Shown: positions 15,851-64,000 of the stretch, piece by piece
Layout: every line of letters begins with the position of its first letter
Position numbering within the stretch: position 1 is the first letter of the stretch
Assembly: GCA_016703065.1 (NCBI GenBank)
Contig: JADJCU010000001.1
Location: 296,526-360,525 of the forward strand
Origin: a bacterium
GTDB lineage: Bacteria; Electryoneota; RPQS01
Direction: 5' to 3'
DNA length: 64,000 nt
The notes under the pieces: model-generated
The model's input: the letters and a program-made list of their open reading frames with translations, nothing else
The model's database searches: none
What the model was told of the DNA's origin: nothing
Position numbers and translations under genes: made by a program

Positions 15851-17365
15851 CTACCGAAGCAAGATCGCTTTGGTTGAACGGATCGTCTCATTGGTTTGTA
15901 ATTGTATCCAATATGTTCCTGACGCGAGTCCTGCCATGTCAATCGGCACCTTGTGCGTTCCGGCGGGCAAGAAGATGTTCCGATTCATGCCGGCTGACCG
16001 TCCGAGCAAATCTTACATCGTGATTTGAGCAATGCCCGAAGTTTGTAAATCAAACTGGAGCGTCGCCTGCGCATTGAACGGATTGGGAAAGACGGACAGG
16101 TCGAGATTACCGGGCAACAATGGTTCGTACGGTGACACAGGACTCATGTCCGGACTCAAACGAATCAACCACATATCGCCGGTGGTATATGGCTCGAATC
16201 GAGTGTGCCAACCGGCAACTCCGGCCGCTGCAAAACCGCCATCTCGGAGGCTGATCAAGGCTTCGCCATCACGGTACAAATCTTGGAACCAGCTTCTGGC
16301 CCACACACTGTCTCCTGCGGAATCTACTTTGGCCATGTACAACGCTTGACCATTTGTCCCTGCCGGATCATCTCGTCCTGCTGCTATTACGCCCCCATCT
16401 TCCGTCGCCGCAAAGGCCTCAATCCCTAGTTGATTTATCCCCGCCAGATCCTTATCCCACATGTAATTCCCCATGGAATCCGTTCGTACAATCCACGCAT
16501 CGTCATACGTTTGACTCAGGCTGGCACTATACCCCCCCAAGAAAAATCCCCCGTCCGGTGCCAATGCGATGGCCCGCCCTTCTTCAGGACCTCCGTAACC
16601 GAATGTGCGGCTCCACAAGCTGTCCCCGTCAGGGGACACCTTGATCATCCAGAAGTCTGAGAACTCCCTGCACCATAAGAATCTGTAAAGCCGCAGGCAA
16701 CGTAGCCGCCTGTCTGGTGCAAGAGTGACAGCCCACCCGTAGTCCCACGCCGTGCTCCCACCGAATGATCGTGTCCAGAGCGTGTCACCGTCGCTACTGA
16801 ACTTCACCACCCAGAGGTCAGGCGAACCGCTCTACCTGCATCGGCCTGTTGCTACATAGTTTCCGTCCTCAACTGCAACCATGTCTTCAAACCATGTCCC
16901 GCCTCGTTCATCGCCAATCACGTTAGTCCAAACCGTGTCACCGTTCAAGCTGAGACGAAGCAACCAACCCAACGCTGGCTCCGGATTTGCCGGAGGGTAT
17001 CGTCCAATCTGGCCTGCGGCCATGTATCCGTCCTCCAGAACGAAAATCTTGGTGATGTAATCCGAGTATGCCCAGCCCCAACTATGGCTCCATTCTTCAT
17101 TGCCGAGCGAATCCACCTTAACCACATACGCATCAGCATTGCGCGTTTCAAATGTCTCGGCATTCCACGTTTCACCTGCGATGATGAACCCGCCATCAGG
17201 TGTCTGCGCAACAGAATGTGCAAGATCGTGATACTGCCTGCCGTATCTTCGCGTCCACAGCGTATCCGGTGGCTGGGCGTGCGCAAGAATGTTCCCACCC
17301 AACAACAAAAGCGCGAACCCCACCCGCTTCAAAAGATTGAAAACAGATAGAATTCGCGTGCTCAT
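15851..17365 (-). pseudogene. T9SS-sorted beta-propeller-like repeat protein, interrupted by two in-frame stops and one compensated frameshift pair
   Basis: Signal peptide (MSTRILSVFNLLKRVGFALLLLGGNILAHA) and repeated 'PDGG(F/Y)..AG......D.W(V/L/I)(V/I/R)K(V/L)...GD..W' blades. An in-frame TAG lies at 16832-16834. Frames shift by +1 and -1 between about 16660 and 16725; the alternative frame reads 'GGYVACGFTDSYGAGSS'. An in-frame TAA at 16013-16015 sits inside the T9SS tail ('PNPFNAQATLQFDLQTSGIAQITM*DLLGRSAG..LPAGTHKVPIDMAGLASGTYWIQLQ..ILLR'). It could instead be sequence error. Confidence 0.6.
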
Positions 17366-17456
17366 GTTCGTGGCCTCCGGGCTAAGTTGCTCCGACAGTT
17401 TCCCAAGACCTGAAGCAAAGGTACAACTTCGCCCGGTCCTTAGCAAATCCCCCCCG

Positions 17457-17813
17457 TCACATCACCTCCTCGTCCTCCGCTCGCCACGCCGGGTCAACTA
17501 TACACAAAAACTCTAAATCCCCGGGACCTAAACTGGTGATCCGCTGCGTTAAAGAGGGGGCAATATAAATGGTGTCCCCCGGCCCGACCTCGCTCAACTT
17601 GCCGTCCAGCTCCATCCGGCCCCGGCCAGCGAGAATGTAATACACCTCGCTGGTCCGAAGCCTGTGGAGTAAAGAGGTCAGCCCGGGAGCGAGTTTTGCA
17701 TGGGCCAGAGAATATCCAACGGACAAGACCCCCTTGTCGGGATGCAAAATCTCCCGCAATTGGGTCCCATCTCCAGCCGTAAACTCTTCACAATCAAGTA
17801 GTCGGCGTTTCAT
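17457..17813 (-). CDS. cupin domain protein
   Basis: 118-aa ORF with a cupin-like core ('HRLRTSEVYYILAGRGRMELDGK..VGPGDTIYIAP'). Confidence 0.6.
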   Translation of the reverse strand: MKRRLLDCEEFTAGDGTQLREILHPDKGVLSVGYSLAHAKLAPGLTSLLHRLRTSEVYYILAGRGRMELDGKLSEVGPGDTIYIAPSLTQRITSLGPGDLEFLCIVDPAWRAEDEEVM

Positions 17814-20053: not shown

Positions 20054-20155
20054 GCCGCCCAACGATGCGGCGCAATGGGACGCGAAAGCGTCCGCGCATC
20101 AACACTGAATTTCTGAGGAAGCAATTTTACATAACTATCTGTAGGAGAGTAGATC

Positions 20156-21328
20156 ATGAAACAGCTTTGGTTGTTCGTCCTTTTGATTGTCTCGAGCGTA
20201 AGTTTCGCCACCATTCACCCCGTGAATGTCAATGCGCTGTCGTTCTCGCCCGCAAATCTCACGGTGCAGCAGGGCGATACTGTCCGTTGGATCAAGACCG
20301 GTGGTTTTCACAATGTCTCCGAAGTCTCGAATCCGTCCGTCTTCCGCAGCGGTGAACCCACCGGAAGCGCTTTCACGTACGATTTCGCTTTCAATGCCCC
20401 GCTTTCAGGCACCTACAACTACGAGTGCGAAGTTCACGCCGGATCAGGCATGGTCGGGACCGTCACCGTCGAAGCCGGTGGTTCGCCGCCGGATGCGCCG
20501 ACTTACCTCGGACCGATGAATGGCGCAACCGATCTTGCAACTTCCGGCAGCTTGCAGTGGAATACTGCGCTTGGCGCTGACCACTACATCGTCCGCCTCG
20601 GCACCTCAAATCCGCCTGCAATTGTGGATGCTGACTTCAACGGTACGTCGTACGACTACTCCGGCCTGAGCAACGGCACACAGTATTTCTGGCAGATCAT
20701 CTCTGAAAATGATTTTGGCACGGCCGATGGCAATGTCTGGTCCTTCACCACAATCGATCCGCTGCCGGGGCAGGCGAACAGTCCATTCCCGGTTGACACC
20801 GCCACAAACGTCCCGATTACGACCTTCCTCGGTTGGGATCCTGCCGATTTCGCCGATAGCTATGAAGTCTTTATCGGAACGGCTGAGCCGCTCACATCCC
20901 TCGGCACAACGACGGAAACGACGATTACGCCGACGGCCGCACTGATCCACTCGACCAGTTATCTCTGGCGCGTGAACTCCACCAACGGTGCGGGCACGAC
21001 CACTGGTGCCACTTGGCACTTCACCACTGAAGCAGGTTCCGCAGTTGGTGATCGTCCCATCCCGACGGCCTTCGAACTCGGCGCGGCCTACCCCAATCCG
21101 TTCAACAGCAACGTTCGGATCAGCCTGAGTATTCCAACCGAGAGCTTCGCACTTGCGCGAGTCTATGCCATCACGGGCCGCGAAGTGGCCACGCTCCTGA
21201 CTGCGCTGATGTCCGCCGGAGCGCACGACCTCGAGTGGAATGCGGCCGGACAGTCCGCCGGTCTCTACTTCCTGAAGTGCGAGTGCGCCGGCCTTACGCA
21301 AACGCAGAAACTCATCTATCTGCCGTAG
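20156..21328 (+). CDS. T9SS-sorted type-1 copper (cupredoxin/plastocyanin-like) protein with three Fn3-like modules
   Basis: Signal peptide MKQLWLFVLLIVSSVSFA and a cupredoxin domain with ligands 'GFHNV' (His) and 'YECEVHAGSGM' (C-X2-H-X4-M). Three 'P..dgA.nv....L.W......Y.(V/I)..G...........YFW/YLWRV..N..G...G..W.FTT' modules precede the T9SS tail 'YPNPFNSNV..KLIYLP'. Confidence 0.8.
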   Translation: MKQLWLFVLLIVSSVSFATIHPVNVNALSFSPANLTVQQGDTVRWIKTGGFHNVSEVSNPSVFRSGEPTGSAFTYDFAFNAPLSGTYNYECEVHAGSGMVGTVTVEAGGSPPDAPTYLGPMNGATDLATSGSLQWNTALGADHYIVRLGTSNPPAIVDADFNGTSYDYSGLSNGTQYFWQIISENDFGTADGNVWSFTTIDPLPGQANSPFPVDTATNVPITTFLGWDPADFADSYEVFIGTAEPLTSLGTTTETTITPTAALIHSTSYLWRVNSTNGAGTTTGATWHFTTEAGSAVGDRPIPTAFELGAAYPNPFNSNVRISLSIPTESFALARVYAITGREVATLLTALMSAGAHDLEWNAAGQSAGLYFLKCECAGLTQTQKLIYLP

Positions 21329-21379
21329 TTCCTGCGAGACATCTAATCCACAGTTCTTGCTGCGGTTGACCAGTTCATG

Positions 21380-21420
21380 CCCCCCCATTCTCCGCCGTGA
21401 GAATGGGGGGAGTGCTTTTT
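21380..21420 (+). terminator. rho-independent terminator
   Basis: Perfect 12-bp stem CCCCCCATTCTC/GAGAATGGGGGG followed by AGTGCTTTTT. Confidence 0.8.
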
Positions 21421-21440
21421 CAATTCTGAGGTATTGCTCC

Positions 21441-22505
21441 ATGTTCCGCAACCTGTTCTTGGTCACAGCGCTTGTTTCGTTCGCCTCAATCGCCGCCGCC
21501 GACCCTGGCAATCGCGGCTACTCTGGTGCCCCCGGCACTCCGGGCCGTTGTGCCTCCGCCTGCCATGGGGTCAATGGCGGCACCGTCCAAATCACTGGAT
21601 TCCCGACGGAATATGTCCCGGACTCAACTTATCTGATTACCATTCAGGCCGTATCGGGATTGCCGATCAAGAACTTCAACGGCTCTGTGCGCCGGGGAAC
21701 ATCCACTGCCAACGCCGGTGTCATCACCGCTGCGACAAACACGACAACGTACAATGTCGTCAATGAAACCAACGGCATTCACCTCAATGCGCTCGACCGC
21801 CAAAGCGCCACCTTTAACTGGCGAGCCCCGGACGCCGGTACCGGAACGGTCCGGCTCTATGTCGGTGCCCATCAGGGCGAACGCCACACCGGGCCCAATA
21901 CCAATATCACCCTGATCTCTGACGAAGCTGTTCTGCCCGCCGCCCCCGGCCAGGCCCAGAATCCGAATCCTGCTGACGGCGCGTCAAACGTCGCCATGCC
22001 CGTGATCCTCCGCTGGAGCAGTGCCGCTGGCGCCGAAAGCTATGAAATTTTTCTCGGAACCGCCGAACCATTGCTCTCCATCGGCAGCTCGTTCGCAACG
22101 TCTATCGTCCCGCCGGATTTGCTCCCCGGTCAATACTACATCTGGCGAGTCGATGCAATCAACGATGGCGGGACGACACCCGGCGATATCTGGAGTTTCA
22201 CTACCGAGTCCGGTTCAGACGCACGAGAGCACGGTATCGTCCTGAACAGCTCACTCGTGTCAGCCTACCCCAATCCCTTTAACAGCACGGTAATTCTCTC
22301 CCTGACGCTGGCGAATTCCGGACTGACAACGGTCACTATATTTGACATTACCGGTCGCGAAATCGCGACTCTCGCCAATGAGTTTCTTGCGCAAGGTGAA
22401 CACCGGTTTGGCTGGAATGCCGCTGGATACGCCGCCGGTATCTATGTCTTCAGGTGCGATTGCGCAGGTTTGACACTCTCACAAAAAGTTGCTTTCTTAC
22501 CCTAA
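21441..22505 (+). CDS. T9SS-sorted protein, paralog 2 of the CX3CH-domain family
   Basis: Start at ATG 21441 (signal MFRNLFLVTALVSFASIAAA). N-domain 'GYSGAPGTPGRCASACHGVNGGTVQITGFPTEYVPDSTYLITI..GTVRLYVGAHQG', one Fn3-like module, and the T9SS tail 'YPNPFNSTV..KVAFLP'. Confidence 0.7.
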   Translation: MFRNLFLVTALVSFASIAAADPGNRGYSGAPGTPGRCASACHGVNGGTVQITGFPTEYVPDSTYLITIQAVSGLPIKNFNGSVRRGTSTANAGVITAATNTTTYNVVNETNGIHLNALDRQSATFNWRAPDAGTGTVRLYVGAHQGERHTGPNTNITLISDEAVLPAAPGQAQNPNPADGASNVAMPVILRWSSAAGAESYEIFLGTAEPLLSIGSSFATSIVPPDLLPGQYYIWRVDAINDGGTTPGDIWSFTTESGSDAREHGIVLNSSLVSAYPNPFNSTVILSLTLANSGLTTVTIFDITGREIATLANEFLAQGEHRFGWNAAGYAAGIYVFRCDCAGLTLSQKVAFLP

Positions 22506-22586
22506 CGCGTGACGGTCTTTCCGATCGGGGAAGTTGGCGAGACTCGCTTGTGTCTCGCTTAATTCTTCAATCAGGAGGCTCCTGTC

Positions 22587-23954
22587 ATGTTCCTCACTCG
22601 CACTGTTTGCCTGCTATTGCTTCTTTCTGTGGCAGGTACCGTCCTCGCGCGCTCGAACTTCCGGGCCTATTCGGGTGCTCCCGGCACGCTCGGATCCTGT
22701 GCCTCGTCCTGTCACGGACAATCAAACGGCACCGTAGAAATCACCGGCTTCCCGGAGAGCTACGTCCCCGACTCCACCTACCTCATCACGATTGCTGCCG
22801 TCAGCGGGCAGTCCATCAACAATTTCAACGCCTCCGTCCGGGTCGGTACGGGTTCAACGAACGCGGGAACCCTTTCCAACGGCGCAAACGTCTCTACGTA
22901 CAACGTTGCGCAAGAGACCAACGGCGTTCACTTCTCGACGAATAACCACACCAGCGGCACGTTTAACTGGCTCGCTCCCGCGGAAGGCACCGGAACCGTG
23001 CGGCTCTACGCTGGCTCCTTCCAAGGCACTAACGAAAACAGCGGTCAAAACTCGGAGTTTGTTCTCGTCGCCGAGGAAGACGTCATTGAAGCACCGCCCG
23101 GATTGGCAACCAATCCCTCGCCTCCAGATAGCGCGGTCGACGTCCCGGTGATGAACACCTTACTCGCATGGACTGCTGCAAACCGCGCGAATAGCTATGA
23201 GATCTTCATCGGCCTTGAAGATGCCTATTGGTCCATCGGCTCAACCACCGCGACCAATATCACAATTCCCGATGTGCTGAACTACGCCGCTGACTACGTT
23301 TGGCGAGTGGACCCGACCAACGACTTCGGCACAACCACCGGCACAACGTGGCACTTCAGCACCGAAGCCGAGCTGCCGCCGCTTCCTGATCAAGTCGCCA
23401 ACCCATCTCCTGCGAATGGCGCACAAAATGTCCCCGTCACCCTCACACTCGTGAGCTGGGGTGCCGCGAATGGCGCGGAGAGTTATCAAATCTATTGGGG
23501 ACTTACGTCTACCCCCGACTATCTCGGCGCGATACCGATGACGAACTTCGTCATGACGAATGACTTGCTCTTCGATACCATGTACTATTGGCGGATCAAT
23601 TCTGTCAATCAAGCCGGTGTCACGGAAGGCGCGCTGTGGAGCTTCCGCACCGAAGCGCAATCCGCTCTCGGCGATCAGCCGCTTGCCATCGAGTTCGTCG
23701 TCAGCCCTGCCTATCCGAATCCGTTTAACAGCTCCGTTCACATCGCGCTCAGCGTACCCGTGGCCGACCGCATTACCGCCCTCATCTACGACCGGCTGGG
23801 CCGTGCTGTTGCGACCCTCGCGGATAATCAACCCTTTGCCAGCGGTATCACGTTGCTGTCGTGGAATGCGCAAGCTCATGCCGCCGGAACCTACTTTTTG
23901 CGCGTAGAGTCTTCGCACAATGCACACACTCAGCGCCTGATCTATTTGCCGTAA
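22587..23954 (+). CDS. T9SS-sorted protein, paralog 3 of the CX3CH-domain family
   Basis: AGGAGG RBS and signal MFLTRTVCLLLLLSVAGTVLA. N-domain 'AYSGAPGTLGSCASSCHGQSNGTVEITGFPESYVPDSTYLITI..GTVRLYAGSFQG', two Fn3-like modules, and the T9SS tail 'YPNPFNSSV..RLIYLP'. Confidence 0.7.
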   Translation: MFLTRTVCLLLLLSVAGTVLARSNFRAYSGAPGTLGSCASSCHGQSNGTVEITGFPESYVPDSTYLITIAAVSGQSINNFNASVRVGTGSTNAGTLSNGANVSTYNVAQETNGVHFSTNNHTSGTFNWLAPAEGTGTVRLYAGSFQGTNENSGQNSEFVLVAEEDVIEAPPGLATNPSPPDSAVDVPVMNTLLAWTAANRANSYEIFIGLEDAYWSIGSTTATNITIPDVLNYAADYVWRVDPTNDFGTTTGTTWHFSTEAELPPLPDQVANPSPANGAQNVPVTLTLVSWGAANGAESYQIYWGLTSTPDYLGAIPMTNFVMTNDLLFDTMYYWRINSVNQAGVTEGALWSFRTEAQSALGDQPLAIEFVVSPAYPNPFNSSVHIALSVPVADRITALIYDRLGRAVATLADNQPFASGITLLSWNAQAHAAGTYFLRVESSHNAHTQRLIYLP

Positions 23955-24032: not shown

Positions 24033-25571
24033 CTACGGTCGAGAGCAGACGACAAAGAACTGCCGGTCATCCGCAATAGTGGCCGGATCAATGACCACCA
24101 TCGTATCTGTTGTCGTACTCACGAACGCGTACGGACCATCCGACGACGCCGAGGCCTTTAAGTCGTATTGTACGCCGGGCGGCGATCCTGTGGGCCGCTT
24201 CCAGCGGAGCTCAATCATCCCGCCCACAACGTGCGCCACCAGTTCCCCCGGCGGACCGGGCAGAACAACGTCACCAAACGGATACGCCCCGATGTCCGCC
24301 ACTGTGCCGTCGGGGTCATGCGGCCGCGACGGACTTGCGGCGTCAATGCACGTGGAGGCCGCAGTCAAATGCAAGTCCCGCGCTGCCGTGTCCGCAAACA
24401 ACGGATCATTGAACAGATTGTGATAGACGTCGCACGAGTCTCCGTTCGCGTTCAGCATTGATAGCTGGCCCAGACCCGGCGCTGCAAGCGTCGAGTCATC
24501 GCTCCAAAACCGAATGTTGCCGTTTGCGTTCCCGTAGAAGTCACAGTATTCGATGGTCGCGTTTTGATCCCACGTATTGTCTATCATCAGACCCGAGTTG
24601 CTCGAGAATGCGAAGATACAGCCGCTGATAACTGACGGCGACCAACAGTACATCTCCCCGCCGTACTCCGTCGCCCGGTTCAGCGCGAATGTGCAGTGGT
24701 AAAAGAACGTCGTATCTTCACTCAAATACACTGCTCCGCCATAGACCGCGCTATTGTCATAGAACACGCATTGGTCAAAGACCGGCTTGGGAGACGTGTA
24801 GTTTGCCAAAATCGCGCCGCCCCATTAGAACGCCGAGTTGCCCGCAAACACGCAACGATTGAATTGCGGAGCTGCGTAGAAGACCATGTTCACCGCGCCG
24901 CCGCCGCCGCCATAGAACTCATCGGCGTTCAATGTCGCTGAGTTACCGATGAAGTCGCAGTCGTTGAACACCGGGTCCGCCGACTGCTCCAAATTCACCG
25001 CGCCGCCGTACTGCGCATGATTATCCACGAAGTCACACGCTGTGAACACCGGGCTCGCTCCGTAAGTTGCACTCATGCCGCCGCCATAGTATGTCGGTGC
25101 AATGTTGTGCCGAATCGAGCAATGGGAAACGACAGGAGACGATGTTGAGAAGTAGAGGCCGCCGCCCTTTGTTTCCTCATATGGCCGCCAGTAATCTGAA
25201 GCCCGGGCATATTCTATCACACTGTACTCTAACCGCGAGGCGCTCGATCCTTCGGAAAAGCGTAGGCCGCCCCACCGCTCCTGAATTGCCGCCGTATCAC
25301 ACGTGAACGTCACGGAATCCGCAGCGGTCCCAAGCGCCTTCAGTATCCCGTACACGTCAACCTTATACCATCCCTCAAACCGGACTATGACTCCCGGTTC
25401 GATTATCAGAGAGTCCGCCGCATCAACATAGATATCGCCGCCGATCACAAAGGGACTGTTAGCCGTCACCCACATTCCGGAGACGGCACCGCCCGGTATC
25501 ACGGTGTCCGCACTGACGCTCTGCGCAATAGTCAGCACCGCGAAACATAACAGGAATTTTAGCTGCTTCAT
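24033..25571 (-). pseudogene. secreted right-handed beta-helix repeat protein with a single in-frame TAA
   Basis: Signal MKQLKFLLCFAVLTIAQSVSA (start ATG 25571). Repeated 'N.A..YGGA(V/I)' coils run straight through the stop at 24825-24827 ('CVFAGNSAF*WGGAILANYTSPKPVFDQCVFYDNSAVYGGAVYL'). The C-terminal domain is Fn3-like. It is paralogous to the 48413-50557 gene. Confidence 0.6.
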
Positions 25572-25728
25572 TTTCGCACCTATTTTGTCACAATTGAGGC
25601 ATGACAATATAAGTTACGTAACGCATCGCCGAGGTTCAAGCAAAAAGAAACCGCACATTCGGGCAATCGCGAACGATGAGTCGCTTTGCGCCGCACGTGC
25701 GGGTCAATGTGGTTCTATTCCCCTGCCG

Positions 25729-37922: not shown

Positions 37923-38025
37923 GGTTATTTTGCGGAGCCTGCAAAGCGCCAGCCGCGCGTTTCTTGAATCTGTGGCAATCGTGTCCGACGAACCAAGAAC
38001 ACAATATAGCAGGATTTCCCCAACG

Positions 38026-38041
38026 TGGCAACTCTCTTGCA
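38026..38041 (+). promoter_or_regulatory. sigma-54 (-24/-12) type promoter
   Basis: TGGCAA-CTCTC-TTGCA has exact consensus spacing (GG and GC 12 nt apart). It lies 78 nt upstream of ATG 38119. Confidence 0.5.
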
Positions 38042-38118
38042 CCCACCCAAATCGTTGTGTATATTGCCTTAGTCTTGTCCATCATGCCACGCTTCACTCC
38101 CCTCGGAAAGGTTTGCCG

Positions 38119-39405
38119 ATGCGCAAATTGTTGTGCCTCATTCTCCTCTTCTGCGCTGTCTTCGCCTCCACTGCCTTCGCCCGCCCGCAGTATAGCGCCC
38201 TCTTCGGCCAAAGCTGCTTCCTCTGCCACGCAAACCCCACTGGCAACGGCATGCGCACCCTACGGCAGTCAGTTCTTTGGCCCGCAATACCTCCCCGTCA
38301 AACCGGTTTCATACGAGCTGATCAATAAGCTCAAACCCCAACTCTCCGAGTCCGTCACCATCGGCGCCGACCTGCGAACGATCTGGATTGCCACGAATAC
38401 CCAGAAAGATGAAGCCGGGCGCGCCCCGAAGAGGGAACGTCCGGCTCCTTTTCAACAAACACCGGCACCGTTGCGCAGATGGAAGGCAACATGTATCTCG
38501 AAATCCGCCCGACCGAGCAGTTCATGCTCTATCTGTCGCGTGGCGTCGCAGATGTCAGCGGCCGCATGGAAGCGTACGGTATGGCCAATCTGAAGGGCTT
38601 CAAGGCGTGGGTCAAGGGCGGACAGTTTCAGGAGAACTACGGCTACCGCTTCGCCGACCATACGGCCTATACCCGCACCGGCCTTTGGTCCGAGTACGAC
38701 GGCTTCGCGAACAGCCCGCCTCTGCCCCCGCACTACGGTGTCGGTTTGGAAGCGGGCACCAGAATCGCAACTTTCGACCTGAGCGGCTCCTACACTGCGG
38801 CCCAGTCCAATATCCCTTCAGACCGCGACCAGCAGAAGCGCTGGGTGGCCCGCGCTTACGGCCAACGCCGGCTGCCCTTTGCGCAGAAGTTCGTGGTCAA
38901 CGGCGGAGCAAGTTGGTATCACTCCCCGGCCAAAGCTCCCGATTCCGAGCTCCCGTTCTCCCAGCGGCGACACAAGACCACCGCCTGGGGCGGCTTTGGC
39001 GGTATCGCGTTTGAAGGCATTCACGGGAAGATGGGAACAGGCGGTGGAGCCTCAAACTTCGGCTGGCTGGCAACCACTCTCCTCTTCGAGTATGACCGCA
39101 AGAACTGGGTTCCGGCCTTTGCCTCTGCACCCATTACCAGTGCCTATTCGACCACGCAGCTCGAAGTGATGGTTTATCAGGGCCTCTGGCTGCAGGCAGC
39201 CTACGACTGGCTCGACAATGCCGAAACCTCTGGCGTAGCCGGGGAGGCCGAGCGCACGTCCATCGGCCTCGGGTCCTTCGTCCTCCCGTGGGTTGAGGTA
39301 TCCGTGAAACACCGGCTCTATTCCTCTGCCGGAAGCACCCAGGACGGTTCTGTGCAGACCCGCAACAAGCAGCAAATCGAAGCTCAGATGCACGTGTTTT
39401 TCTAA
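38119..39405 (+). pseudogene. Cyc2-like fused monohaem cytochrome c / outer-membrane porin, with a compensated frameshift pair
   Basis: Signal MRKLLCLILLFCAVFASTAFA and a single CXXCH (CFLCH, 38215-38229). About 390 aa of beta-barrel-like sequence follow, ending '..EAQMHVFF'. Nucleotides ~38260-38425 must be read in the +1 frame ('PYGSQFFGPQYLPVKPVSYELINKLKPQLSESVTIGADLRTIWIA..'), after which the original frame resumes. Confidence 0.55.
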
Positions 39406-39424
39406 GCTTACGACAAGAGTGTGG

Positions 39425-39451
39425 AAAGCCCGCCTCGCTGGCGGGCTTTTT
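39425..39451 (+). terminator. rho-independent terminator
   Basis: Hairpin AAAGCCCGCC-TCGCT-GGCGGGCTTT followed by TTTAATTT. Confidence 0.8.
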
Positions 39452-39564
39452 AATTTCCAGTCACTTAGAACTTGACATTTTGGGTCATCTATGGCACATT
39501 GATGCAATACGTGGCCATACCTCGTGGACCTCGATCACCAGCCTTACACCTGAGGGAGTTTAGG

Positions 39565-40149
39565 ATGAACAAATTTCTGACGCTTGTCGTACTTTGCGTC
39601 GCGTCCACCGCGTTCGCAACGATCCACAATGTGACCGTGTCCGGGCTCTCGTTTACGCCCGCGAACATCACTATTCAACAGGGAGACACGGTGCGCTGGA
39701 CCAAAGGCGGCGGGCTTCACAATGTCGCTGAAGTAACCGCAACACCGGTGTTCCGCAGTGGGAATCCCACCAGTAGTCCCTTTGTCTATGACTTCGCATT
39801 CAATGCGCCGTTAGCCGGTACATATAACTATGAGTGTGAAGTGCATTTCAGCGTCGGGATGGTCGGCACTGTGACCGTCGAAGTCCCGCCGCCACCCTGC
39901 CTTGACCCAACCGACCTTGTCATCAAGTGGGAGGCCGCCGATCAGGTACACGTCTACTGGCAGGCTCCGCAGATGGGCCACTATGTCGTCTATGGCACTG
40001 CCGATGCCACTCTGGCCACGACCCCGCCCGGCCCCGGCTGGTCCGTCGCTGCGGAAGTTGATGTTGCCGCGATTGGACAGGCCGATGTCGTCATTACAGG
40101 ACTCTCCGACCAACAGTTCTTCGTCGTCGTGCAAGACTGCACACCGTAG
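39565..40149 (+). CDS. secreted type-1 copper protein (cupredoxin) with a C-terminal Fn3-like domain
   Basis: GAGGGAG RBS and signal MNKFLTLVVLCVASTAFA. The cupredoxin domain closely resembles that of the 20156 gene; its ligands are 'GLHNV' and 'YECEVHFSVGM'. There is no T9SS tail. Confidence 0.8.
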   Translation: MNKFLTLVVLCVASTAFATIHNVTVSGLSFTPANITIQQGDTVRWTKGGGLHNVAEVTATPVFRSGNPTSSPFVYDFAFNAPLAGTYNYECEVHFSVGMVGTVTVEVPPPPCLDPTDLVIKWEAADQVHVYWQAPQMGHYVVYGTADATLATTPPGPGWSVAAEVDVAAIGQADVVITGLSDQQFFVVVQDCTP

Positions 40150-40168
40150 ATAACACCTCCCTAAATCA

Positions 40169-40204
40169 AAACGGGCCGCGCTTCTCTGCGTGGCCCGTTT
40201 TCTC
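40169..40204. terminator. bidirectional terminator between convergent genes
   Basis: Imperfect hairpin AACGGGCCGCG..CGTGGCCCGTT with TTTCTC on the + side and AAA upstream. Confidence 0.6.
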
Positions 40205-48412: not shown

Positions 48413-50557
48413 TCAAGGCAACGCAAACACGACGTACGTCCGCTGTTCCGTCGCTGTAAGCAACACATCGTCATCCGTAAACGTCGTTGCCGCCGTCGTG
48501 CCAATCAGCACACTGTTCCCCGGCTCATACTCCTGTGTGTCACCTGCATAAATCTCATAGCCGCTCGCCCCCGGCACCGCGCCCCAATTGAGCAGGATGT
48601 CGTTGTTCGCCGTGTCGTGGTAAATGACCAAGTCATCTACCACCAATGCGCCGCGCTCATATGCGCCGATGTCTGAAAACGCTCCGCTGGGCCGCGCCGT
48701 TCCGTCAAAATCACGCGCAATCATACTCGCCGGATCCGCAGCGTTCACACACGCGCTCGTTCCGCCCAAATGCAAATCTCCGTTTGCGGCATCCGCATAC
48801 TCAGGATCAACATAGAGATTGAAATACTGATCGCACGTATCTCCGTTCACATTCGTCGTCGAAATCGTCCCTAATCCCACCGGGGGAACGCCCCGGAAAT
48901 TCTGACCCGAAAGACCGAAGAAGTCGCAATACTCAATGTCGCCCGTGGCCCCCAAATCAAAATAGATCGCACAGCTCGCCGTGGAATGCGACACAATGCA
49001 GCTCGTCATGGTCAGACTTCCCCCATCCATGAAGATCACTCCGCCCGGATGACCACTCGCGCTGTTATCATACATCGTGCAAAACTCAAACGACGGGCTG
49101 CCGCCTGCGCTATACAGCACGCTGCCCGTGCCATATTGTATTCCTCGATTGAGGTCGTTCCCCGCAAACACGCTGTTCACAATGTACGGCGAAGCCTCTG
49201 CGTAGCAATACAGCGCCGCGCCGAATGTGCTCAGTGTGTTCCATTCCTCTGTCCCCTCTTCATCCCAGACCAGGTAACTCGTGTTCCCGTCGAACTTGAA
49301 GTGACTTACCGTGTCCGCCCCCGAGAAAAAAGACGATTGCCCCTCCCACTCCGTTTCCGTAGTTACCGAGATGCGGACCCCAGCTGCTCGCCACGTTCTC
49401 TTCAAACACGCAGCCGGTAAACCAGTTCCCACCCTTCGAATACACCGCTCCATCTGAAGAGTGGTTGTTGCGAAATGTGCAATTCGTGAAGGTGGTATTC
49501 TCACACAAACTTGCCGCCCCGTATTCTCCAATGTTTCCTTCAAACACGGAATTTGAAATCTCCGCTGTGATCGGATCGAATATCCCCACTCCGCTGCTCC
49601 CGCCTGTCTCATTGGGACCAATCCAACTTGCGCTGTTATTCCTGAGCGTACATGCGTCCATCGTCAACGCCGCGCCGACACACCGCATGCCCCGTCAAAA
49701 CCAAAAGCGGCATGATGATTCGAGATTGTCGTCCCCGTCAGCGACACCACGGAGGTCGGTTCAGCCATGACTCCGCCCAACCCTCCGTCGGGAGTCTGAT
49801 TGTCGTCAATCAAGCATGTGTCAATCGTCGCGACCGTTCCCTCGCGCAAGTAGAGTCCACCGATTACTATGCCCGGACGATTCGATTGAATCTTGCAGTG
49901 CCGCAGGTGAATGGTCGCATTGAGCGTCGCAAACCCACCCCCCTTGGTATTGTATACATAACCGTCGCCGTATACCGTCCCGCCGTTATGCGTGATATCC
50001 GTGTATTCGAGTTCAACATCGCTTTGCTCAAAATACGCTCCGCAACCTCCGCCCGCGTTTGCGGGACTTCCGCCCGCGTGACAGTGGTGAATCCTACTAC
50101 GCGCAATCTCCAAGTCCGTATTGTAGCAATACAATCCGCCACCATAACTTAATGCCCCCGGCCCCGTCGCGCCGCTGTATGTGATACTGCAATAACGCAA
50201 CTCACAATCGGCGTCAGCGTCCACAAACCGTAGCCCCCGCCAACGCGTCGGCGAATCGTAGGGAAACCCACTCGCATCCCCCGTAAACCAAATTGAATCG
50301 CTTTCCGTACCTATCGCTTGCAGTAGGCCATTAATAACCATTTTGAATGAGCCTGCGAAATAAACCCGCACACCCGGCTCAATCTGCAAGGCCTCGCCCG
50401 TCACAACGGTGATGTCTCCACCGTGCACGACATACGGTGAACCCGAGGCGGGCCACACGCCGCTCACATTCCCGGAGGCCACCCAGGTCGTGTCTGCCTG
50501 TGCTGCTTCTCCCCACCACAGAACTACCAATCCGATTAGAACTTGAATAATCTTCAT
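48413..50557 (-). pseudogene. secreted right-handed beta-helix repeat protein, two frameshifts (frame 1 to 2 to 1)
   Basis: Signal MKIIQVLIGLVVLWWGEAAQA. The N-terminus is paralogous to the 24033-25571 gene ('VSG.W....SPY.V.GDI.V......I.PGV.V.F'). The sequence is spread over ORFs 49664..50557, 49260..49688 and 48413..49621. The second shift falls in an A6/T6 run at 49326-49331 ('GGAIVFF|SGADTVSHFKF'). The C-terminal part has 'DLHLGGTSACVNAADP' and an Fn3-like end. Confidence 0.6.
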
Positions 50558-50608
50558 CTTAGCCCTCGATTCGTACCTTTTTCAAGTTGTCCTTGAGCTG
50601 TCCTTCAA

Positions 50609-50635
50609 AATATACTCTAAACCCCCCATTGTCAA
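50609..50635 (-). promoter_or_regulatory. sigma-70-like promoter for the 50557 gene
   Basis: The minus strand reads TTGACA (50630-50635), a 15-17 nt spacer, then TATATT(TT) (50607-50614). Confidence 0.35.
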
Positions 50636-50704
50636 CAGCCATTTTATCGCTCATCCGCAACTTCGGACGCGCCACTGGTCCAGCGCATACTCTGGTGGTG
50701 CAAA

Positions 50705-50720
50705 TGGCCCTGTTGTTGCT
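50705..50720 (+). promoter_or_regulatory. sigma-54 (-24/-12) type promoter upstream of the EBP gene
   Basis: TGGCCC-TGTTG-TTGCT has consensus spacing, 50 nt upstream of ATG 50770. Confidence 0.4.
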
Positions 50721-50769
50721 GTATGAATTCCCGGCAAAGTGGTTCAACGCAACAAACCCGGCGAAAAAC

Positions 50770-52200
50770 ATGCAGGCAACGTTATTAGTAGTGGACGACG
50801 ACCGCGATATTCGCGAAATCATTCGGCAGGTCGCGGAAATCAAAGACTACGAAGTTATTGAGGCTGAAGATGCTACGGTCGGCCTCGAAAAAATGCGCAC
50901 GATGGCACCCGATCTGTCCATCATAGACGTCGGATTGCCGGGCGGAATTGACGGTGTTGAACTCTGTCAACAGATTCATGAAGTCGCACCGCAACATCCC
51001 GTGCTCATTATCAGCGGACAGGCCACGCCCGAAAAGGCCGTGGAGGCGCTCAAGCACGGCGCATTTGACTACCTCGGCAAGCCGCTTAATCTCGAAAAGC
51101 TGATGCTCTTGGTTGATCGCGCCCTCTCGAATGTCGCCACCGCCCGCGAAATCGAGCGCGTCGCCGATGAACGCAAGGCCGTCTACGGCTTTGACCGTCT
51201 GGTCGGCGACTGCAAGCAGATGAATCAGGTCAAAGAGACGGGCCGCAAAGTCGCCGCTGTCCCCTTTGCTACCGTACTGCTAACAGGTGAATCGGGAACT
51301 GGCAAGGAACTCGTGGCGCATGCGGTTCACCTGGCCTCGCCCAATGCCGACAAACCGTTCGTCGAAGTGAACTGCGCCGCCATGCCCGAGAATCTACTCG
51401 AAGCTGAGCTCTTCGGCTATGAGAAGGGCGCGTTCACCGATGCCAAACAACGCAAACGCGGACTCTTTGAAATCGCCGCCGGCGGGACCTTCTTCCTCGA
51501 CGAAATCGGCGAAATGCCGCTCAATCTGCAAGTGAAGCTGCTCAAGGTCATCGAAGAGCGCACCTTCCGCAGAGTCGGGGGCACCCAGCCATTGCAAATG
51601 AAATTCAGATTGATCGCCGCGACCAATGCCAATCTGATGGAGCAGATTGAGTCCGGGAAATTCCGCCGCGATCTCTACTATCGACTTGCCGTCTTCTCGA
51701 TTCATCTGCCGCCGCTGCGGGAACGCGCTCACGATACCGTCGACATCGCGCTCCACTTTATCGAAAAATTCAACCGCGAATTCGGCAAAACCATCAAGGG
51801 TATCGCTCCTGATGCTGAGCGGCTGCTCGTCAGCTACAACTGGCCCGGCAATATCCGCGAACTTCGTAATGCCGTCGAGCGCGCCGTGCTGATTGGCGCT
51901 GGACCCTATATCCAAGCGGCCGACCTGGCCATCCTGCCGATGCAGGAGACGCCCACCCCGAGTCTCGCGTCTGTCCCCGAAAAGGACGTCGACGCGATGC
52001 TCAACAATCCCGACGGCTTCTCCATTGACGTCCCCTCAACCGGTGTCAACATGGAAGAAGTTGAAAAGCAGCTCATCCGAATTGCCATGCGCCACTCTCA
52101 CAACAATGCCTCCGCCGCCGCGAGATTCCTGCGCATGACCCGTGAAACACTCCGCTACCGCCTGAAAAAATACGGCATCCGCGAAGAAATCGAATCCTAA
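50770..52200 (+). CDS. sigma-54-dependent response regulator (NtrC family enhancer-binding protein)
   Basis: Receiver domain ('LLVVDDDRDIRE..DLSIIDVGLPG'), an AAA+ sigma-54 interaction domain ('GESGTGKELVA', 'GAFTDA', 'TFFLDEIGEM', 'RRDLYYRL') and a C-terminal Fis-type HTH. Start moved to ATG 50770. Confidence 0.9.
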   Translation: MQATLLVVDDDRDIREIIRQVAEIKDYEVIEAEDATVGLEKMRTMAPDLSIIDVGLPGGIDGVELCQQIHEVAPQHPVLIISGQATPEKAVEALKHGAFDYLGKPLNLEKLMLLVDRALSNVATAREIERVADERKAVYGFDRLVGDCKQMNQVKETGRKVAAVPFATVLLTGESGTGKELVAHAVHLASPNADKPFVEVNCAAMPENLLEAELFGYEKGAFTDAKQRKRGLFEIAAGGTFFLDEIGEMPLNLQVKLLKVIEERTFRRVGGTQPLQMKFRLIAATNANLMEQIESGKFRRDLYYRLAVFSIHLPPLRERAHDTVDIALHFIEKFNREFGKTIKGIAPDAERLLVSYNWPGNIRELRNAVERAVLIGAGPYIQAADLAILPMQETPTPSLASVPEKDVDAMLNNPDGFSIDVPSTGVNMEEVEKQLIRIAMRHSHNNASAAARFLRMTRETLRYRLKKYGIREEIES

Positions 52201-59897: not shown

Positions 59898-61916
59898 GCT
59901 TTTCCCCCTCGCTTTAGCGGGGGGGGCAGGGGGGGGTAATCCACTTCCCCCCTCCTCCACAAACGTCAACCCCAACTTCCCCGCAAACTCCGCCACAAAC
60001 TTCGCATCCAAATTCGGCTTCCGCGGTGAGCCGTCGGCGGGGTAAAGGTAGAGAGGGAAAAAGTAATTGACCTCTTTCATTGAAACGGTATGATGTGTCG
60101 AAATTTGCCTCGTACACAATACATGCTCGAAACCGCGACTAATCTCCACTGTCCTAGTTGTTGACAGTGCAAGGTTTGGTCCCGCGAGCATGTGTTGCAT
60201 AACTTCGATGCGGGGCCGCTCAATTTCAGGAGGATAATAGAAGATGCATCTCATATCAAAAGGCCGGTAGAGAACTTGTGGGAATGAAGCATCTTCTTTG
60301 ACAGCCTTCTTTAGTTGTTTGACCATGCGCGCCTGGACTTCGTCATCGGTGATTCGAAATGCGCGCAAAGTGTCATCTTCAGTCTTGATCGCGGAGTTGA
60401 TTCTCTTGGTCAACACTCTTCTCGATCAAAGTCTATTAAGAAGGAATCGTTGGCAGTAACCAACCCCACAGAATTGGTATTGAATACTTTTTGAACAGAG
60501 GCGCCTTCGTTGTATTCGTCACCTTCTTCAGATTCAGACTTCGTAAACATGTAGAACGGTTTGCTCGGTTCAATCCTCTGCCATTCCGTATCCTTGTGGT
60601 CGTGCGCACCCAGCCACTCATATTTACTCTCTCGCTTACCCCATAACTCGCCTCGCTGAATAACAGCGTCGTCATTGTCGTGAGATTTGACAAAAAGGCC
60701 AACGGATACACCCTGCATAATATCAAAAACATTCTCGTCCTTGCCGCCGTCAGGAGATTGCTCTTTCTTCTTGCTATTGCCATGCAAATCTAACAAGTAA
60801 AGTTCATCAAACGTGCGTTGCAAACTGCGCCTCATCCCGCGAAACGTTGGATTGTCAAGATATCCATGACTTGTTATGAACGCTAAGATACCTTCTGCTC
60901 TTGTATCCCCAACTGCCCATTGCGCTATCCGCCATTGCCCATACCGTAAGAACTTTACATAATCATCCTGTAGCCACTTGGGGTTCTTTTCACCAAGCGG
61001 CTCCCCGTCAACAAAATAGTAATCTTTAATCAGTTTGCTAATCCACGGGCCGCTATTTGCCGAGTGGCCTGAATAAGGTGGATTACCAAGCACAACCATG
61101 ATCGGCAAACGATTCTTGACCGTTGCGGCGGCGTTTGCTTCTTGCGATATGATCCTCATTGTACCAAAGAACTCTTCGGCTTCATAGATCGTCTCCTCCA
61201 AACTATTCGTCAGATACACATGCAGACGCTGATCCTTTTCAATCTCGTACCCCCACTTTTCGCGGAGCTTCGGGTCAAGGTCGTGTCCGGCCAATTGCAT
61301 CGCCAACTTCAGATGCGCAACCGCATACGGAGCCATCTGCAACTCAAAGCCGTAGATGCGCGGAATCAAATGGTCTTTGACAAACGCCTGCCACGACCCC
61401 GCGTCGTTACGCTCCATGAACCGGTTGCGAATCAAATCCACGACCGCATAGAGAAACGTCCCCGTCCCGCACGCCGGATCAAGAATCAATATTTTGGGCA
61501 GTTTCCGCTTGACAAATTTATCTCCCTCTTTGACCTCAACTTCAATCGTGGACGTATCGGCCAAGCCGTCCTTCAAGCCGAACTTTTCCTTTAGCAGAAT
61601 ATCCACCGACCGCACGATATACGACACCACCGGCTCCGGCGTGTAATAGACACCGCGCCGCTTGCGCTCCTTGGGATCGTATTCAGACAGAAACGTCTCG
61701 TAGAAATGCAGAATCGGGTCTTCCTGCTTCGTGCGCTTCCCAAATGAAGCCAAAATCGCCTCAATATCCGAATGCGCCAGCACGGCCGTCAAGTCATCCA
61801 CAAACCCGATAAACGGCTCATCTTCGAGCGAGGTGGAGTGCATGGTCTCGAAGAGATTGCGGAGGAAGGGATTGCTCTTGGGGATTTCGCGGGCTGCTCC
61901 GGTGCGGGTGAACTCC

Positions 61917-61962
61917 GGTCTCCCCCCAAGTCCGTCTGCGGATTTGGGGGGACTAAGGGGGG
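61917..61962 (+). repeat. family A nested-hairpin repeat, copy 5 (inside the RM coding sequence)
   Basis: GGTCTCCCCCCAAGTCCGTCTGCGGATTTGGGGGGACTAAGGGGGG, translated as 'PLSPPKSADGLGGRP'. Confidence 0.85.
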
Positions 61963-62737
61963 CGTCTGCGTGTTGTATTCGCGCCGCAAACAATCCATAT
62001 CCGAGGGTTTGCGCGAACATATCCGCGAATTGCGCGTCGGTAATGTCCGGCAACAAGGTGCGCTCAAAAGCGGACTTCAGGTCCTGCATCAGTTCGGACG
62101 GTGTCCCGTCCGCAAACGTATTCGTAATCACCCGGTCAATGTTCTTGCACAAACCGGCCATGCGGGAAGCCAGCTCTTTGGGCGAATTAATTTCCCGCAC
62201 GTCCTGAGCCAGAAACGACTCGAGTAACTCGGTGAGTTCAGCTTCGCCATCCTTCAGAATTTTAATCTTCTTACCGGACTTCTTCGCCAGCCGCACCGTC
62301 CGCCGCTTTTCACCCTTGACATACCAGCGGAACTCGAGATAATCGGTCAAGATGAGATTCGGAAGCTGCAAGTAGCGTTCAAGCTGCTCTGACTTCTCAA
62401 TCTTGCTCAACTCTTCGCCGACCTTTTTGGTCTCGACATACCCCACCGGCAGATGAATCTGTCCCCGCACCTTTCTTCGAATCACAAAATCCGGCGCGCC
62501 GACCTTGATCTGCTTAGGGTCGTTCGACACGAGCAACTCTTTGCCGAATGATTCCAATAAGCCCTGAATCGCAGGCCTGTGCGTGTGCTCCGTATCATCT
62601 CCCAGCGCGATCTTCTCTTGCAGGGATTTCAAATAGTTCTTCAGCGCGTCCGGCATGTGCCTCAATTCCAATCTGTGATTCCGCTTTCCTCCTAATCTAC
62701 TCCCCTCACCCCACTTCCGCAAGCGCGCCCGCCCTCA

Positions 62738-63135: not shown

Positions 63136-64000
63136 TCACTTCGGAAGCCGCAGCGAAAACACACTTCCCCGTCCAAGCTGCGTATCCACATGCACCGTCC
63201 CGCCATGCGCAAGCGCCGCATGTTTTACAATCGCCAACCCTAACCCCGTCCCACCGTACTTGCGATTGCGCGACGCCTCAATCCGATAAAAGCGCTCGAA
63301 TATCCGCGATAGATGCTTCTCCGCAATCCCCGGCCCGCGATCCTCTACCGCAATCACCAACACCCCCTCCGCGACTCCCGCCCGCACGTCGATCCGCGTC
63401 CCCTCCGGACTGTATTTCGCCGCATTGTCAATCAGATTCACCACCGCCTGCCGGATCAAAAACGCGTTCACCGAGGCCGTAACCTCCGGCGAACAGTCGA
63501 GCACCACCTGCTGACCGCGCGAGTCCGCCGCCGAGGACGCCGCATCCACCGCATCCTTCAAGATCGGCAAGATCGCCTGCCGCTCCGCGGCGAGCTTCTG
63601 CGCATCCGACACCTGCTCGATCCGGGCCAACGTCAACAAATCCTCGATAATCGACTGTAAATAGTCTGCCTGCCGGGACATAATGTCGAGGAATCGCTCC
63701 GCATCACGCGGATTCTCCATCGCCCCCTCGCGCAGCGTCTCGATCGATCCGATAATCGCCGTCACCGGTGTCTTGAGCTCGTGACTCGCGTTTGCCACAA
63801 ACTCCCGCCGCGTCTCCTCAATCCGCCGCATCTGCGTCACGTCACTAATCACAATCACCACACCCAACACCTCGCCCACCGCGATAATCGGGTTCCCCCG
63901 CATCTGCAGAATCCGCTCGTCCGGCATGAAGCGCGCAACCTCGCGTTCGACAGGTCCCCCGGCCGTCAGTGTGTCGCGAATGAAACGATGAATGTCCGTG
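63136..64000 (-). CDS. sensor histidine kinase (PAS-HisKA-HATPase_c), N-terminus outside window
   Basis: H-box 'NASHELKTPVTAIIGSIETL', N-box 'LIDNAAKYS' and G-boxes 'EDRGPGI' and 'GGTGLGLAIV'. The frame stays open upstream of the listed ATG (63927) to the window end. Confidence 0.8.
   Translation of the reverse strand, partial: TDIHRFIRDTLTAGGPVEREVARFMPDERILQMRGNPIIAVGEVLGVVIVISDVTQMRRIEETRREFVANASHELKTPVTAIIGSIETLREGAMENPRDAERFLDIMSRQADYLQSIIEDLLTLARIEQVSDAQKLAAERQAILPILKDAVDAASSAADSRGQQVVLDCSPEVTASVNAFLIRQAVVNLIDNAAKYSPEGTRIDVRAGVAEGVLVIAVEDRGPGIAEKHLSRIFERFYRIEASRNRKYGGTGLGLAIVKHAALAHGGTVHVDTQLGRGSVFSLRLPK

Follow-up and report, generated by a model that had tools for sequence, protein, structure and literature searches.

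Does the gene at positions 38119-39405 of the plus strand, within the 64,000-nt stretch of contig JADJCU010000001.1 analysed here in full (the window), encode the outer-membrane iron oxidase Cyc2, and is the cupredoxin gene behind it the partner of its product? The original prediction, made from the letters of the DNA, had described a Cyc2-like protein with one haem motif fused to a porin, standing next to a secreted copper protein as in the rus operon of Acidithiobacillus ferrooxidans and preceded by a sigma-54 type promoter. Our analysis keeps the architecture but changes the name. The product, here called the haem-porin, belongs to a large family that is a distant sister of Cyc2, and we put at roughly 60% the probability that it acts as an outer-membrane porin of 16 strands with a fused N-terminal haem c peptide, passing electrons to a small carrier protein.

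Reading across two frame changes, which are treated below, yields a protein of 429 aa after repair (ca. 428 aa had been estimated), the same length as that of its closest intact homologue. It begins with a signal peptide, MRKLLCLILLFCAVFASTAFA (38119-38181, +), followed by a single haem motif, CFLCH (38215-38229, +), at residues 33 to 37, and the barrel extends from about residue 80. These features were all found as first described. An AlphaFold2 model was built for the orthologue P0001, which is 87% identical, from an alignment of 53 sequences and without the haem cofactor; it contains 16 beta strands in residues 80-428 with a predicted template-modelling score (pTM) of 0.74, so that the porin part and its expected number of strands were borne out. 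A Foldseek comparison of this model with the PDB retrieved 16-strand porins, with OprP (2o4v) in first place (E 3e-11) and OmpF-type porins as well; the 50 best matches listed were all porins and other outer-membrane barrels, with no Cyc2-like structure among them. OprP 2O4V is the template reported also for Cyc2 (PMC8406198). A sequence search of the PDB with the family profile gave marginal matches only, with E values no better than 0.06, in the region of the signal and the haem motif.

Among some 5.8 billion proteins searched, 59 relatives of the haem-porin were found, 51 of them close (42-87% identity, ca. 415-440 aa if full length), from metagenome-assembled genomes (MAGs) labelled Calditrichaeota, KSB1 or simply 'bacterium', and all annotated as hypothetical. 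The CXXCH motif was invariant even in the relatives with 24-28% identity. When 1.84 billion representatives of clusters at 50% identity were searched exhaustively with a profile, the family grew to 1,769 clusters at E<=1e-3, 725 at E<=1e-10 and 202 at E<=1e-30, most of them of 360-430 aa. Named sources included Ignavibacteriales, Kapabacteria, Bacteroidota, Calditrichaeota, KSB1 and one MAG labelled Nitrospiraceae, again always as 'hypothetical protein'. The N-terminal consensus of the family reads A-[LV]-P-R-[FY]-[AS]-x-R-x-G-x-x-C-x-x-C-H-V-N-P-T-G-G-G-M-R-x-x-Y-G. The CXXCH motif is 100% conserved in 180 diverse members, and 171 of 184 have exactly one; in about eight of the 184 a second CXXCH lies in an N-terminal extension, giving dihaem variants (P0058, P0059, P0216, P0284). 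Besides the haem motif, three residues stand out by their conservation, M122 (93%), H182 (93%) and H426 (94%), the second of which lies between strands 5 and 6, in a loop that corresponds in position to L3, the loop folding into the lumen in classical porins. Judging from this conservation, M122, H182 and H426 are probably the candidates for the sixth haem ligand.

No family model for either this family or Cyc2 was found in a Pfam scan of the repaired protein, distant members and Cyc2, and no NCBIfam model matched the repaired haem-porin. In the literature on Cyc2 and cytochrome-porins we found no description of the family, of its motif, or of its pairing with cupredoxins or haem proteins bearing a sorting tail of the type IX secretion system (T9SS); two Cyc2 surveys do not mention these lineages, and nothing relevant was found on cytochrome-porins together with type IX secretion or on T9SS together with extracellular electron transfer.

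Whether the haem-porin is itself a Cyc2 can be judged against the definition of Keffer et al. (2021), by which Cyc2 has AXPXFAR[Q/K][T/Y] before CXXCH, PXL about four residues after it, and a porin of 16 strands (PMC8406198). Genuine cyc2 genes were taken from the rus operon of Acidithiobacillus genomes, which was found through its rusticyanin gene and read from there in the upstream direction; 389 Cyc2 homologues were gathered, of which 44 were aligned and used to build a hidden Markov model (HMM). A census of motifs in 205 family members and 120 Cyc2 sequences separated the two groups sharply. PxFAR[QK][TY] occurs in none of the 205 but in 88 of the 120, and CXXCH-N3/4-PxL in none as against 114; conversely, CXXCH-x-x-[P..]-[TS..]-G is present in 179 of the 205 family members and in no Cyc2. 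What both share is a core, Px[FY][AST]-N6/7-CXXCH (158/205 and 117/120, respectively). In the haem-porin of the window the segment before the haem reads A-R-P-Q-Y-S-A-L-F-G-Q-S-C, against A-L-P-S-F-A-R-Q-T-G-W-S-C in Cyc2, and the segment after it reads CH-A-N-P-T-G-N-G-M-R, with no PxL.

Profile comparisons gave an answer in two parts. The Cyc2 HMM built here, which is centred on cluster 2, gave the repaired haem-porin a score of 2.3 bits (E 0.76 with some 200 sequences in the database), so that no direct match was obtained, whereas profile-profile alignment did reveal homology. The first hhalign runs, of a narrow family alignment against one Cyc2 sequence or a Cyc2 alignment, aligned only 34-43 N-terminal columns and were unconvincing (92% probability, E 5.8e-7 over 43 columns against Cyc2); with a profile of 180 family sequences the alignment reached 132 columns, with 96.6% probability and E 6.8e-10, over a stretch that runs from the signal peptide through the haem motif and the linker to about the third strand. 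Taken together, the motifs and the profile comparisons indicate that the family is related to Cyc2 at the superfamily level, by shared architecture and distant common ancestry, and that it lies outside the Cyc2 family as published.

It is thus very unlikely that the locus encodes a bona fide Cyc2 Fe(II) oxidase with a rusticyanin-like acceptor behind a sigma-54 promoter, as had been proposed. The common architecture, the common structural template and the alignable N-terminal module speak for it, and Cyc2 hits have been reported before in MAGs of Calditrichota, KSB1 and Bacteroidota (PMC9769843), which we take as FeGenie-type calls; the missing motifs and the HMM score speak against it, as do the type of cupredoxin, the terminator between the two genes and the anatomy of the promoter, all described below. 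Bona fide Cyc2 homologues do occur in MAGs of the Fibrobacteres-Chlorobi-Bacteroidetes (FCB) group, e.g. a Kryptoniota protein with E 3.5e-56 to Acidithiobacillus Cyc2, and together with the earlier hits they make a Cyc2-type protein in such lineages no new idea.

The main evidence for an electron-transfer role comes from the neighbouring genes. In 82 family loci, the open reading frames (ORFs) on the same strand and at most 200 nt from the haem-porin gene were classified. Forty such ORFs were found, 10 encoding cupredoxins, 14 encoding CXXCH proteins and 16 encoding other products; cupredoxins or CXXCH proteins thus make up 24 of 40 adjacent genes, against one (a CXXCH protein) among the 271 other ORFs of those loci. 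The domains of the partners were confirmed as PF00127, PSCyt1, CytoC_RC-like, or Temptin_C plus a T9SS tail, the cytochrome partners being monohaem proteins of PSCyt1 type, CytoC_RC-like dihaem proteins, and proteins of about 225 aa with a CXXCH-bearing Temptin_C domain and a T9SS tail. Nine of these ten cupredoxins belong to the close clade and do not count as independent cases; the remaining one, in locus L063, has a T9SS sorting tail and adjoins a family member with only about 25% identity. This recurrent adjacency to electron carriers of unrelated folds supports, from gene order, a role of the haem-porin family in electron transfer, and is silent on the substrate and the direction.

The proteins of about 225 aa lie directly upstream of distant family members (5110-5799 in L106; 3281-3967 and 2298-3227 in L090; 3293-3967 in L092; 3192-3893 in L098). 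Their CXXCH is placed inside the Temptin_C domain, e.g. LSCGTCHVSAAGGGARTAFG, in a setting reminiscent of the haem motif of the porin, and a T9SS tail follows.

Several observations weigh against the proposed role. Many family loci have no redox neighbour, and in the clade with 45-57% identity there is no cupredoxin gene between the porin gene and nfo, but either nothing or the gene for a different T9SS protein. In the window the gene stands between the housekeeping genes dapF, which is divergent, and nfo, with no respiratory genes nearby. The T9SS tails on some partners suggest that at least some carriers are outside the cell, unlike in the periplasmic scheme of Cyc2 and rusticyanin. In the AlphaFold2 model the haem peptide (residues 17-58) has low confidence, and the placement of the haem is not fixed by it. 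Moreover, the copy in the window, as sequenced, is unable to make the full protein.

The very wide distribution of the family, presumed heterotrophs included, the loci without a redox partner and the conserved single-copy position adjoining dapF in a housekeeping neighbourhood would all fit a specialised porin whose haem is not an electron relay, the haem peptide serving as plug, sensor or catalytic centre, for instance in peroxide or NO detoxification or in the acquisition of iron or haem. We regard this as improbable, given how strongly and repeatedly the family is found next to small electron carriers, which are of three unrelated folds, and given its homology to Cyc2, with its demonstrated Fe(II) oxidation (PMC8406198).

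It can also be the case that electrons flow the other way, the haem-porin delivering them from the periplasm to surface cytochromes or cupredoxins exported by T9SS, in extracellular electron transfer rather than Fe(II) uptake. The T9SS-tailed partners immediately upstream of family members in L090, L092, L098 and L106, and the tailed cupredoxin in L063, speak for such a function, as do one cupredoxin and two CXXCH proteins with T9SS tails that are encoded in the window (20153-23954). On the other hand, no T9SS tail was detected on the cupredoxin adjacent to the haem-porin, most of the partners are ordinary small cytochromes, a single haem spans only a short distance, and direction cannot be read from the sequence; we consider the outward function rather unlikely, though less so than a haem that is no relay.

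The proteins just mentioned are encoded by three consecutive genes (20153-23954, +) that resemble a cluster for surface-displayed redox proteins. The first (20153-21328, +) encodes a second plastocyanin-type cupredoxin, with PF00127 at 1.4e-10 and Por_Secre_tail, and the other two (ca. 21441-22505 and 22587-23954, +) are paralogues with an N-terminal CXXCH (CASACH and CASSCH), a weak Reeler-like domain, Fn3-like repeats and Por_Secre_tail. Several Por_Secre_tail proteins show that the lineage carries T9SS cargo, which supports this part of the original prediction.

For the relay function that we prefer, the following mechanism may be envisaged. The haem peptide would lie in or under the lumen of the barrel, with M122, H182 or H426 probably providing the sixth ligand. 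Single electrons would cross the outer membrane, exchanged between a soluble redox species outside the cell, for which Fe(II) would be the leading candidate by analogy with Cyc2, and a small carrier protein. In the close clade this carrier would be the adjacent plastocyanin-like cupredoxin, and in other clades a small cytochrome c with one or two haems, in some cases bearing a T9SS sorting tail. The two genes would be transcribed apart, each from its own sigma-70-type promoter-like site and to its own terminator.

The putative carrier in the window is a secreted plastocyanin-type cupredoxin of 194 aa (39565-40149, +), composed of a signal peptide, a type-1 copper domain, a PPPP linker and a C-terminal domain of about 85 aa. 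Its gene starts 159 nt past the haem-porin gene, with a terminator in between. The match to PF00127 (39.7 bits, gathering cut-off 21.2) and the copper ligands H52, C91, H94 and M99, invariant in eight sequences comprising orthologues, the window paralogue and the L063 protein, bear out the secreted type-1 copper protein that had been noticed downstream. Its closest solved relatives are cyanobacterial plastocyanins (E 2.5e-9), and it scores 42 bits with the plastocyanin model TIGR02656; with the rusticyanin model TIGR03095 it reaches 15 bits, the cut-off being 146.7, and so fails that equivalog test. The analogy with the rus operon is therefore weak: it stands as far as an adjacent cupredoxin is concerned and does not extend to its type, nor to joint transcription, given the conserved terminator between the genes.

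The C-terminal domain of the cupredoxin is bracketed by two conserved Cys. A Pfam scan of it gave no match and no T9SS signature, and in the whole protein no Por_Secre_tail or CHU_C match was obtained even at E<=1, unlike in the paralogue at 20153-21328 and in the L063 cupredoxin. Three secreted proteins of the window have similar C-termini, ...QQFFVVVQDCTP (40120-40146, in the cupredoxin), ...RQFFVVCSRP (24033-24060) and ...RTYVVFALP (48413-48440). The resemblance hints at a common C-terminal domain or sorting signal, unlike the Por_Secre_tail endings (...QKLIYLP) found elsewhere in the window.

With regard to transcription, an intrinsic terminator hairpin follows the haem-porin gene (39422-39452, +; -23.7 kcal/mol, z -3.6), with a U-rich tract behind it, and is conserved in L001 and L002; another follows the cupredoxin gene (40168-40201, +; -27.1 kcal/mol, z -9.3). 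Just past the first hairpin, upstream of the cupredoxin gene, there is a -35-like hexamer, TTGACA (39472-39477, +), with CTTGAC invariant in six orthologous intergenic regions. The presence of this invariant hexamer beyond the porin terminator indicates that the cupredoxin and haem-porin genes are separate transcription units.

The sigma-54 type promoter of the original prediction consisted of a TGGCAA-N5-TTGCA element, TGGCAACTCTCTTGCA, which is indeed present at 38026-38041 (+) with the GG-N10-GC spacing of a sigma-54 pattern. By chance a window would be expected to contain 0.34 such patterns, and 30% of shuffles had one or more. More tellingly, the spacing is kept only in the window and L001, one extra base being present in L002, L026-L030 and L032, so that it is broken in seven of the nine orthologous loci; the distance from GGCA to TTGC varies between N7 and N8 among these loci, and the 45-57% identity clade has no such element. 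A different spacing is conserved. On the plus strand, TTGCAC (38037-38042) is separated by 17 nt from TATATT (38060-38065), forming a promoter-like site for the haem-porin gene (38037-38065, +), and this 17-nt spacer, TTGC(A/G)x-17-TATATT, is identical in the window, L001, L002, L026-L030 and L032; TATATT, or a sequence like it, is kept in the 45-57% identity clade also. On the minus strand, TTGCCA, 17 nt and TATATT form a promoter-like site for the divergent dapF (38003-38031, -; 10/12 matches in a promoter scan, with TG before the -10), and the spacing of TTGCC(A/T)-17 nt-TATATT is the same in the loci compared by eye, e.g. L002. The conserved 17-nt spacing on both strands implies that TGGCAA and TTGCA are two -35 hexamers, and the element is best read, from these alignments, as two back-to-back, divergent promoters of putative sigma-70 type for dapF and the haem-porin gene. 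With its correctly spaced GG-N10-GC and a sigma-54 activator gene elsewhere in the window, the element had lent the Cyc2 reading some support; the sigma-54 promoter was rejected on account of its non-conserved spacing.

That activator is of NtrC type (receiver, Sigma54_activat, HTH_8; 50563-52200, +), 11 kb from the haem-porin gene, and the C-terminal end of a histidine kinase is encoded at 63136-63999 (-). These genes indicate that sigma-54 regulation exists in the organism, and no link of the sigma-54 regulators of the window to the haem-porin locus was found. A near-sigma-54 string, TGGCACATTGATGCA, lies upstream of the cupredoxin gene (ca. 39493-39507, +), with GG-N9-GC, one base off the pattern. 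It is not conserved in the orthologues, which have TGGTTC (L001 and L031) or TTGCAA (L002); the TGGCAC near the TTGACA hexamer is not conserved.

What, then, is the state of the copy in the window? Frame 1 opens at ATG 38119 and encodes MRKLLCLILLFCAVFASTAFA-RPQYSALFGQSCFLCHANPTGNGMR, followed by nonsense up to TAA at 38326, with a further stop at about 38410; the reading that matches the homologues passes to frame 2 at about 38258 (PYGSQFFGPQYLP...DEAGRAP) and is back in frame 1 from 38428 (EEGTSGSF...QMHVFF), with the stop at 39405. Alignment of the DNA to two intact orthologous loci placed the lesions as a 2-nt deletion in a (GC)n run at ca. 38254-38257 (+; GGCAT--GCGCACCC against GGCATGAGAGCGCCC and GGCATGCGCGAACTC) and a second deletion, of 1 nt, at 38427/8 (+; CCCC-GAAG against CCCCGGAAG), by which the reading comes back into its original frame. 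The intact orthologue with 87% identity has 429 aa, and the order dapF (divergent), haem-porin, cupredoxin and nfo (convergent) is likewise found in it and in the closest loci. Comparison with this orthologue (L001) gave a ratio of nonsynonymous to synonymous substitution rates (dN/dS) of 0.078 over the full gene; for the 57 codons put out of frame by the deletions it is 0.044, and besides the two indels there is no other lesion in 1.29 kb. These ratios imply purifying selection in the proper frame during essentially all of the divergence from the orthologue. The dead relic that the original prediction had allowed for does not agree with them, nor with the intact alleles in orthologues; an old relic was ruled out by the dN/dS values.

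The copy could nonetheless be a true pseudogene, inactivated by two slippage deletions in the organism itself, with the locus having no current function in this strain. Both indels and the stops in frame 1 are there in the sequence, and at least three other genes for secreted or surface proteins in the window are disrupted as well, which could mean real gene loss under relaxed selection. Against such a loss stand the low dN/dS of the shifted segment, the lack of additional lesions and the location of the indels in (GC)n and CCCCGG runs, together with a second gene carrying a like frame-restoring pair, one member of which lies at a T6 run; this is the typical pattern of consensus errors. We hold the pseudogene to be possible but doubtful. 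The occurrence of all indels at simple repeats and the number of genes hit make a consensus or assembly error somewhat likelier than true inactivation, and the lesions are probably due to such an error or to a very recent inactivation, rather than to old decay. An exact look-up in a public gene collection returned no record of the 308-aa haem-porin ORF of the window or of its cupredoxin.

The other disrupted genes of the window are interrupted at homopolymer or GC runs or by in-frame stops. An in-frame TAA (24825-24827) splits a right-handed beta-helix repeat protein (24033-25613, -) in the middle of a repeat (CVFAGNSAF, stop, WGGAILANY), with Beta_helix domains flanking it on both sides. An in-frame TAG (16832-16834) lies in one apparent repeat-containing protein (16013-17461, -; GNYVATGRCR, stop, SGSPDLWVVKFSSDGDTLW), neither half of which gave a match in a Pfam scan. 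The second frame-restoring pair lies in the gene for a further beta-helix protein (48413-50581, -), where one change falls in a GC-rich run near 49680-49700 and the other, some 365 nt away, in the T6 run near 49335, a defect of the same type as that in the haem-porin gene. An MmeI-like N6 DNA methyltransferase, or type IIL-like enzyme, is encoded at 60410-62734 (-; N6_Mtase, MmeI_Mtase), and could matter if methylation-related errors in base calling contributed to the in-frame stops.

A broader idea is put forward tentatively: a widespread second family of fused monohaem cytochrome-porins (ca. 1,770 clusters at 50% identity) may form, with interchangeable small carriers, a minimal electron conduit across the outer membrane. 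The carriers would comprise cupredoxins, cytochromes with one or two haems and surface haem proteins exported by T9SS, and the conduit would perhaps be distinct from both Cyc2 and the Mtr-type systems. Its lineages might include Calditrichota/KSB1-like bacteria, Ignavibacteriales, Kapabacteria, Bacteroidota and other MAGs. If this speculative picture is true, the family would connect type IX secretion with redox chemistry outside the cell in bacteria of the FCB group. In metagenomes, iron oxidisers are called mainly by Cyc2 as the genetic marker; since the sister family fails both the Cyc2 motif definition and the HMM built here, surveys may miss or mislabel a common class of outer-membrane redox proteins. 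The repeated pairing with cupredoxins, small cytochromes and T9SS-tailed haem proteins provides concrete partner pairs, and it suggests that heterotrophs with T9SS may carry redox proteins at the cell surface. The value of the window itself is lower, because its copy is broken as sequenced and the sigma-54 idea was rejected.

The haem-porin can be compared with several known systems. MtrAB/MtoAB and the PCC3 porin-cytochrome complexes share with it the presumed task of moving electrons across the outer membrane through a barrel, but they consist of two proteins, with a cytochrome of ten or more haems in a barrel of 26 strands, against one haem fused to 16 strands here (PMC10734462 and established knowledge); no sequence similarity of the haem-porin to them was found. 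The rus operon of A. ferrooxidans (cyc2-cyc1-orf-coxBACD-rus) likewise has haem-porin and cupredoxin genes on the same strand in one locus, whereas the locus studied here has only those two genes, each with its own promoter-like site and with a terminator between them, no Cyc1 and no oxidase, and its cupredoxin is plastocyanin-like and carries an extra C-terminal domain. With plastocyanin and pseudoazurin (PF00127) this cupredoxin shares the ligand set of His and Cys-x2-His-x4-Met, and it differs from them in its non-photosynthetic bacterial context, in its Cys-bracketed domain of ca. 85 aa, and in having paralogues and relatives with T9SS tails.

The closest comparison is that with Cyc2 (A. 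ferrooxidans Cyc2, Mariprofundus Cyc2PV-1; FeGenie clusters 1-3). Differences include the absence here of FAR[Q/K][T/Y], in whose place the window protein has YSALF, and of PxL, replaced by CxxCH-x-N-P-T-G-x-G-M-R, as well as a shorter chain (median 385 aa in the family and 478 aa in Cyc2, the window protein having 429 aa) and the conservation of M122, H182 and H426, which have no counterpart among the invariant positions of Cyc2. With its 429 aa the repaired haem-porin is nevertheless within the length (at least 365 aa, 16 strands) ascribed to Cyc2. Common to both are a Sec signal peptide, a single CXXCH placed 11-12 residues past the cleavage site, 13 positions from A-x-P to the first haem Cys in the arrangement A-x-P-x-[F/Y]-[A/S]-N7-CxxCH, a 16-strand barrel with OprP 2O4V as the best template, and small electron carriers encoded nearby.

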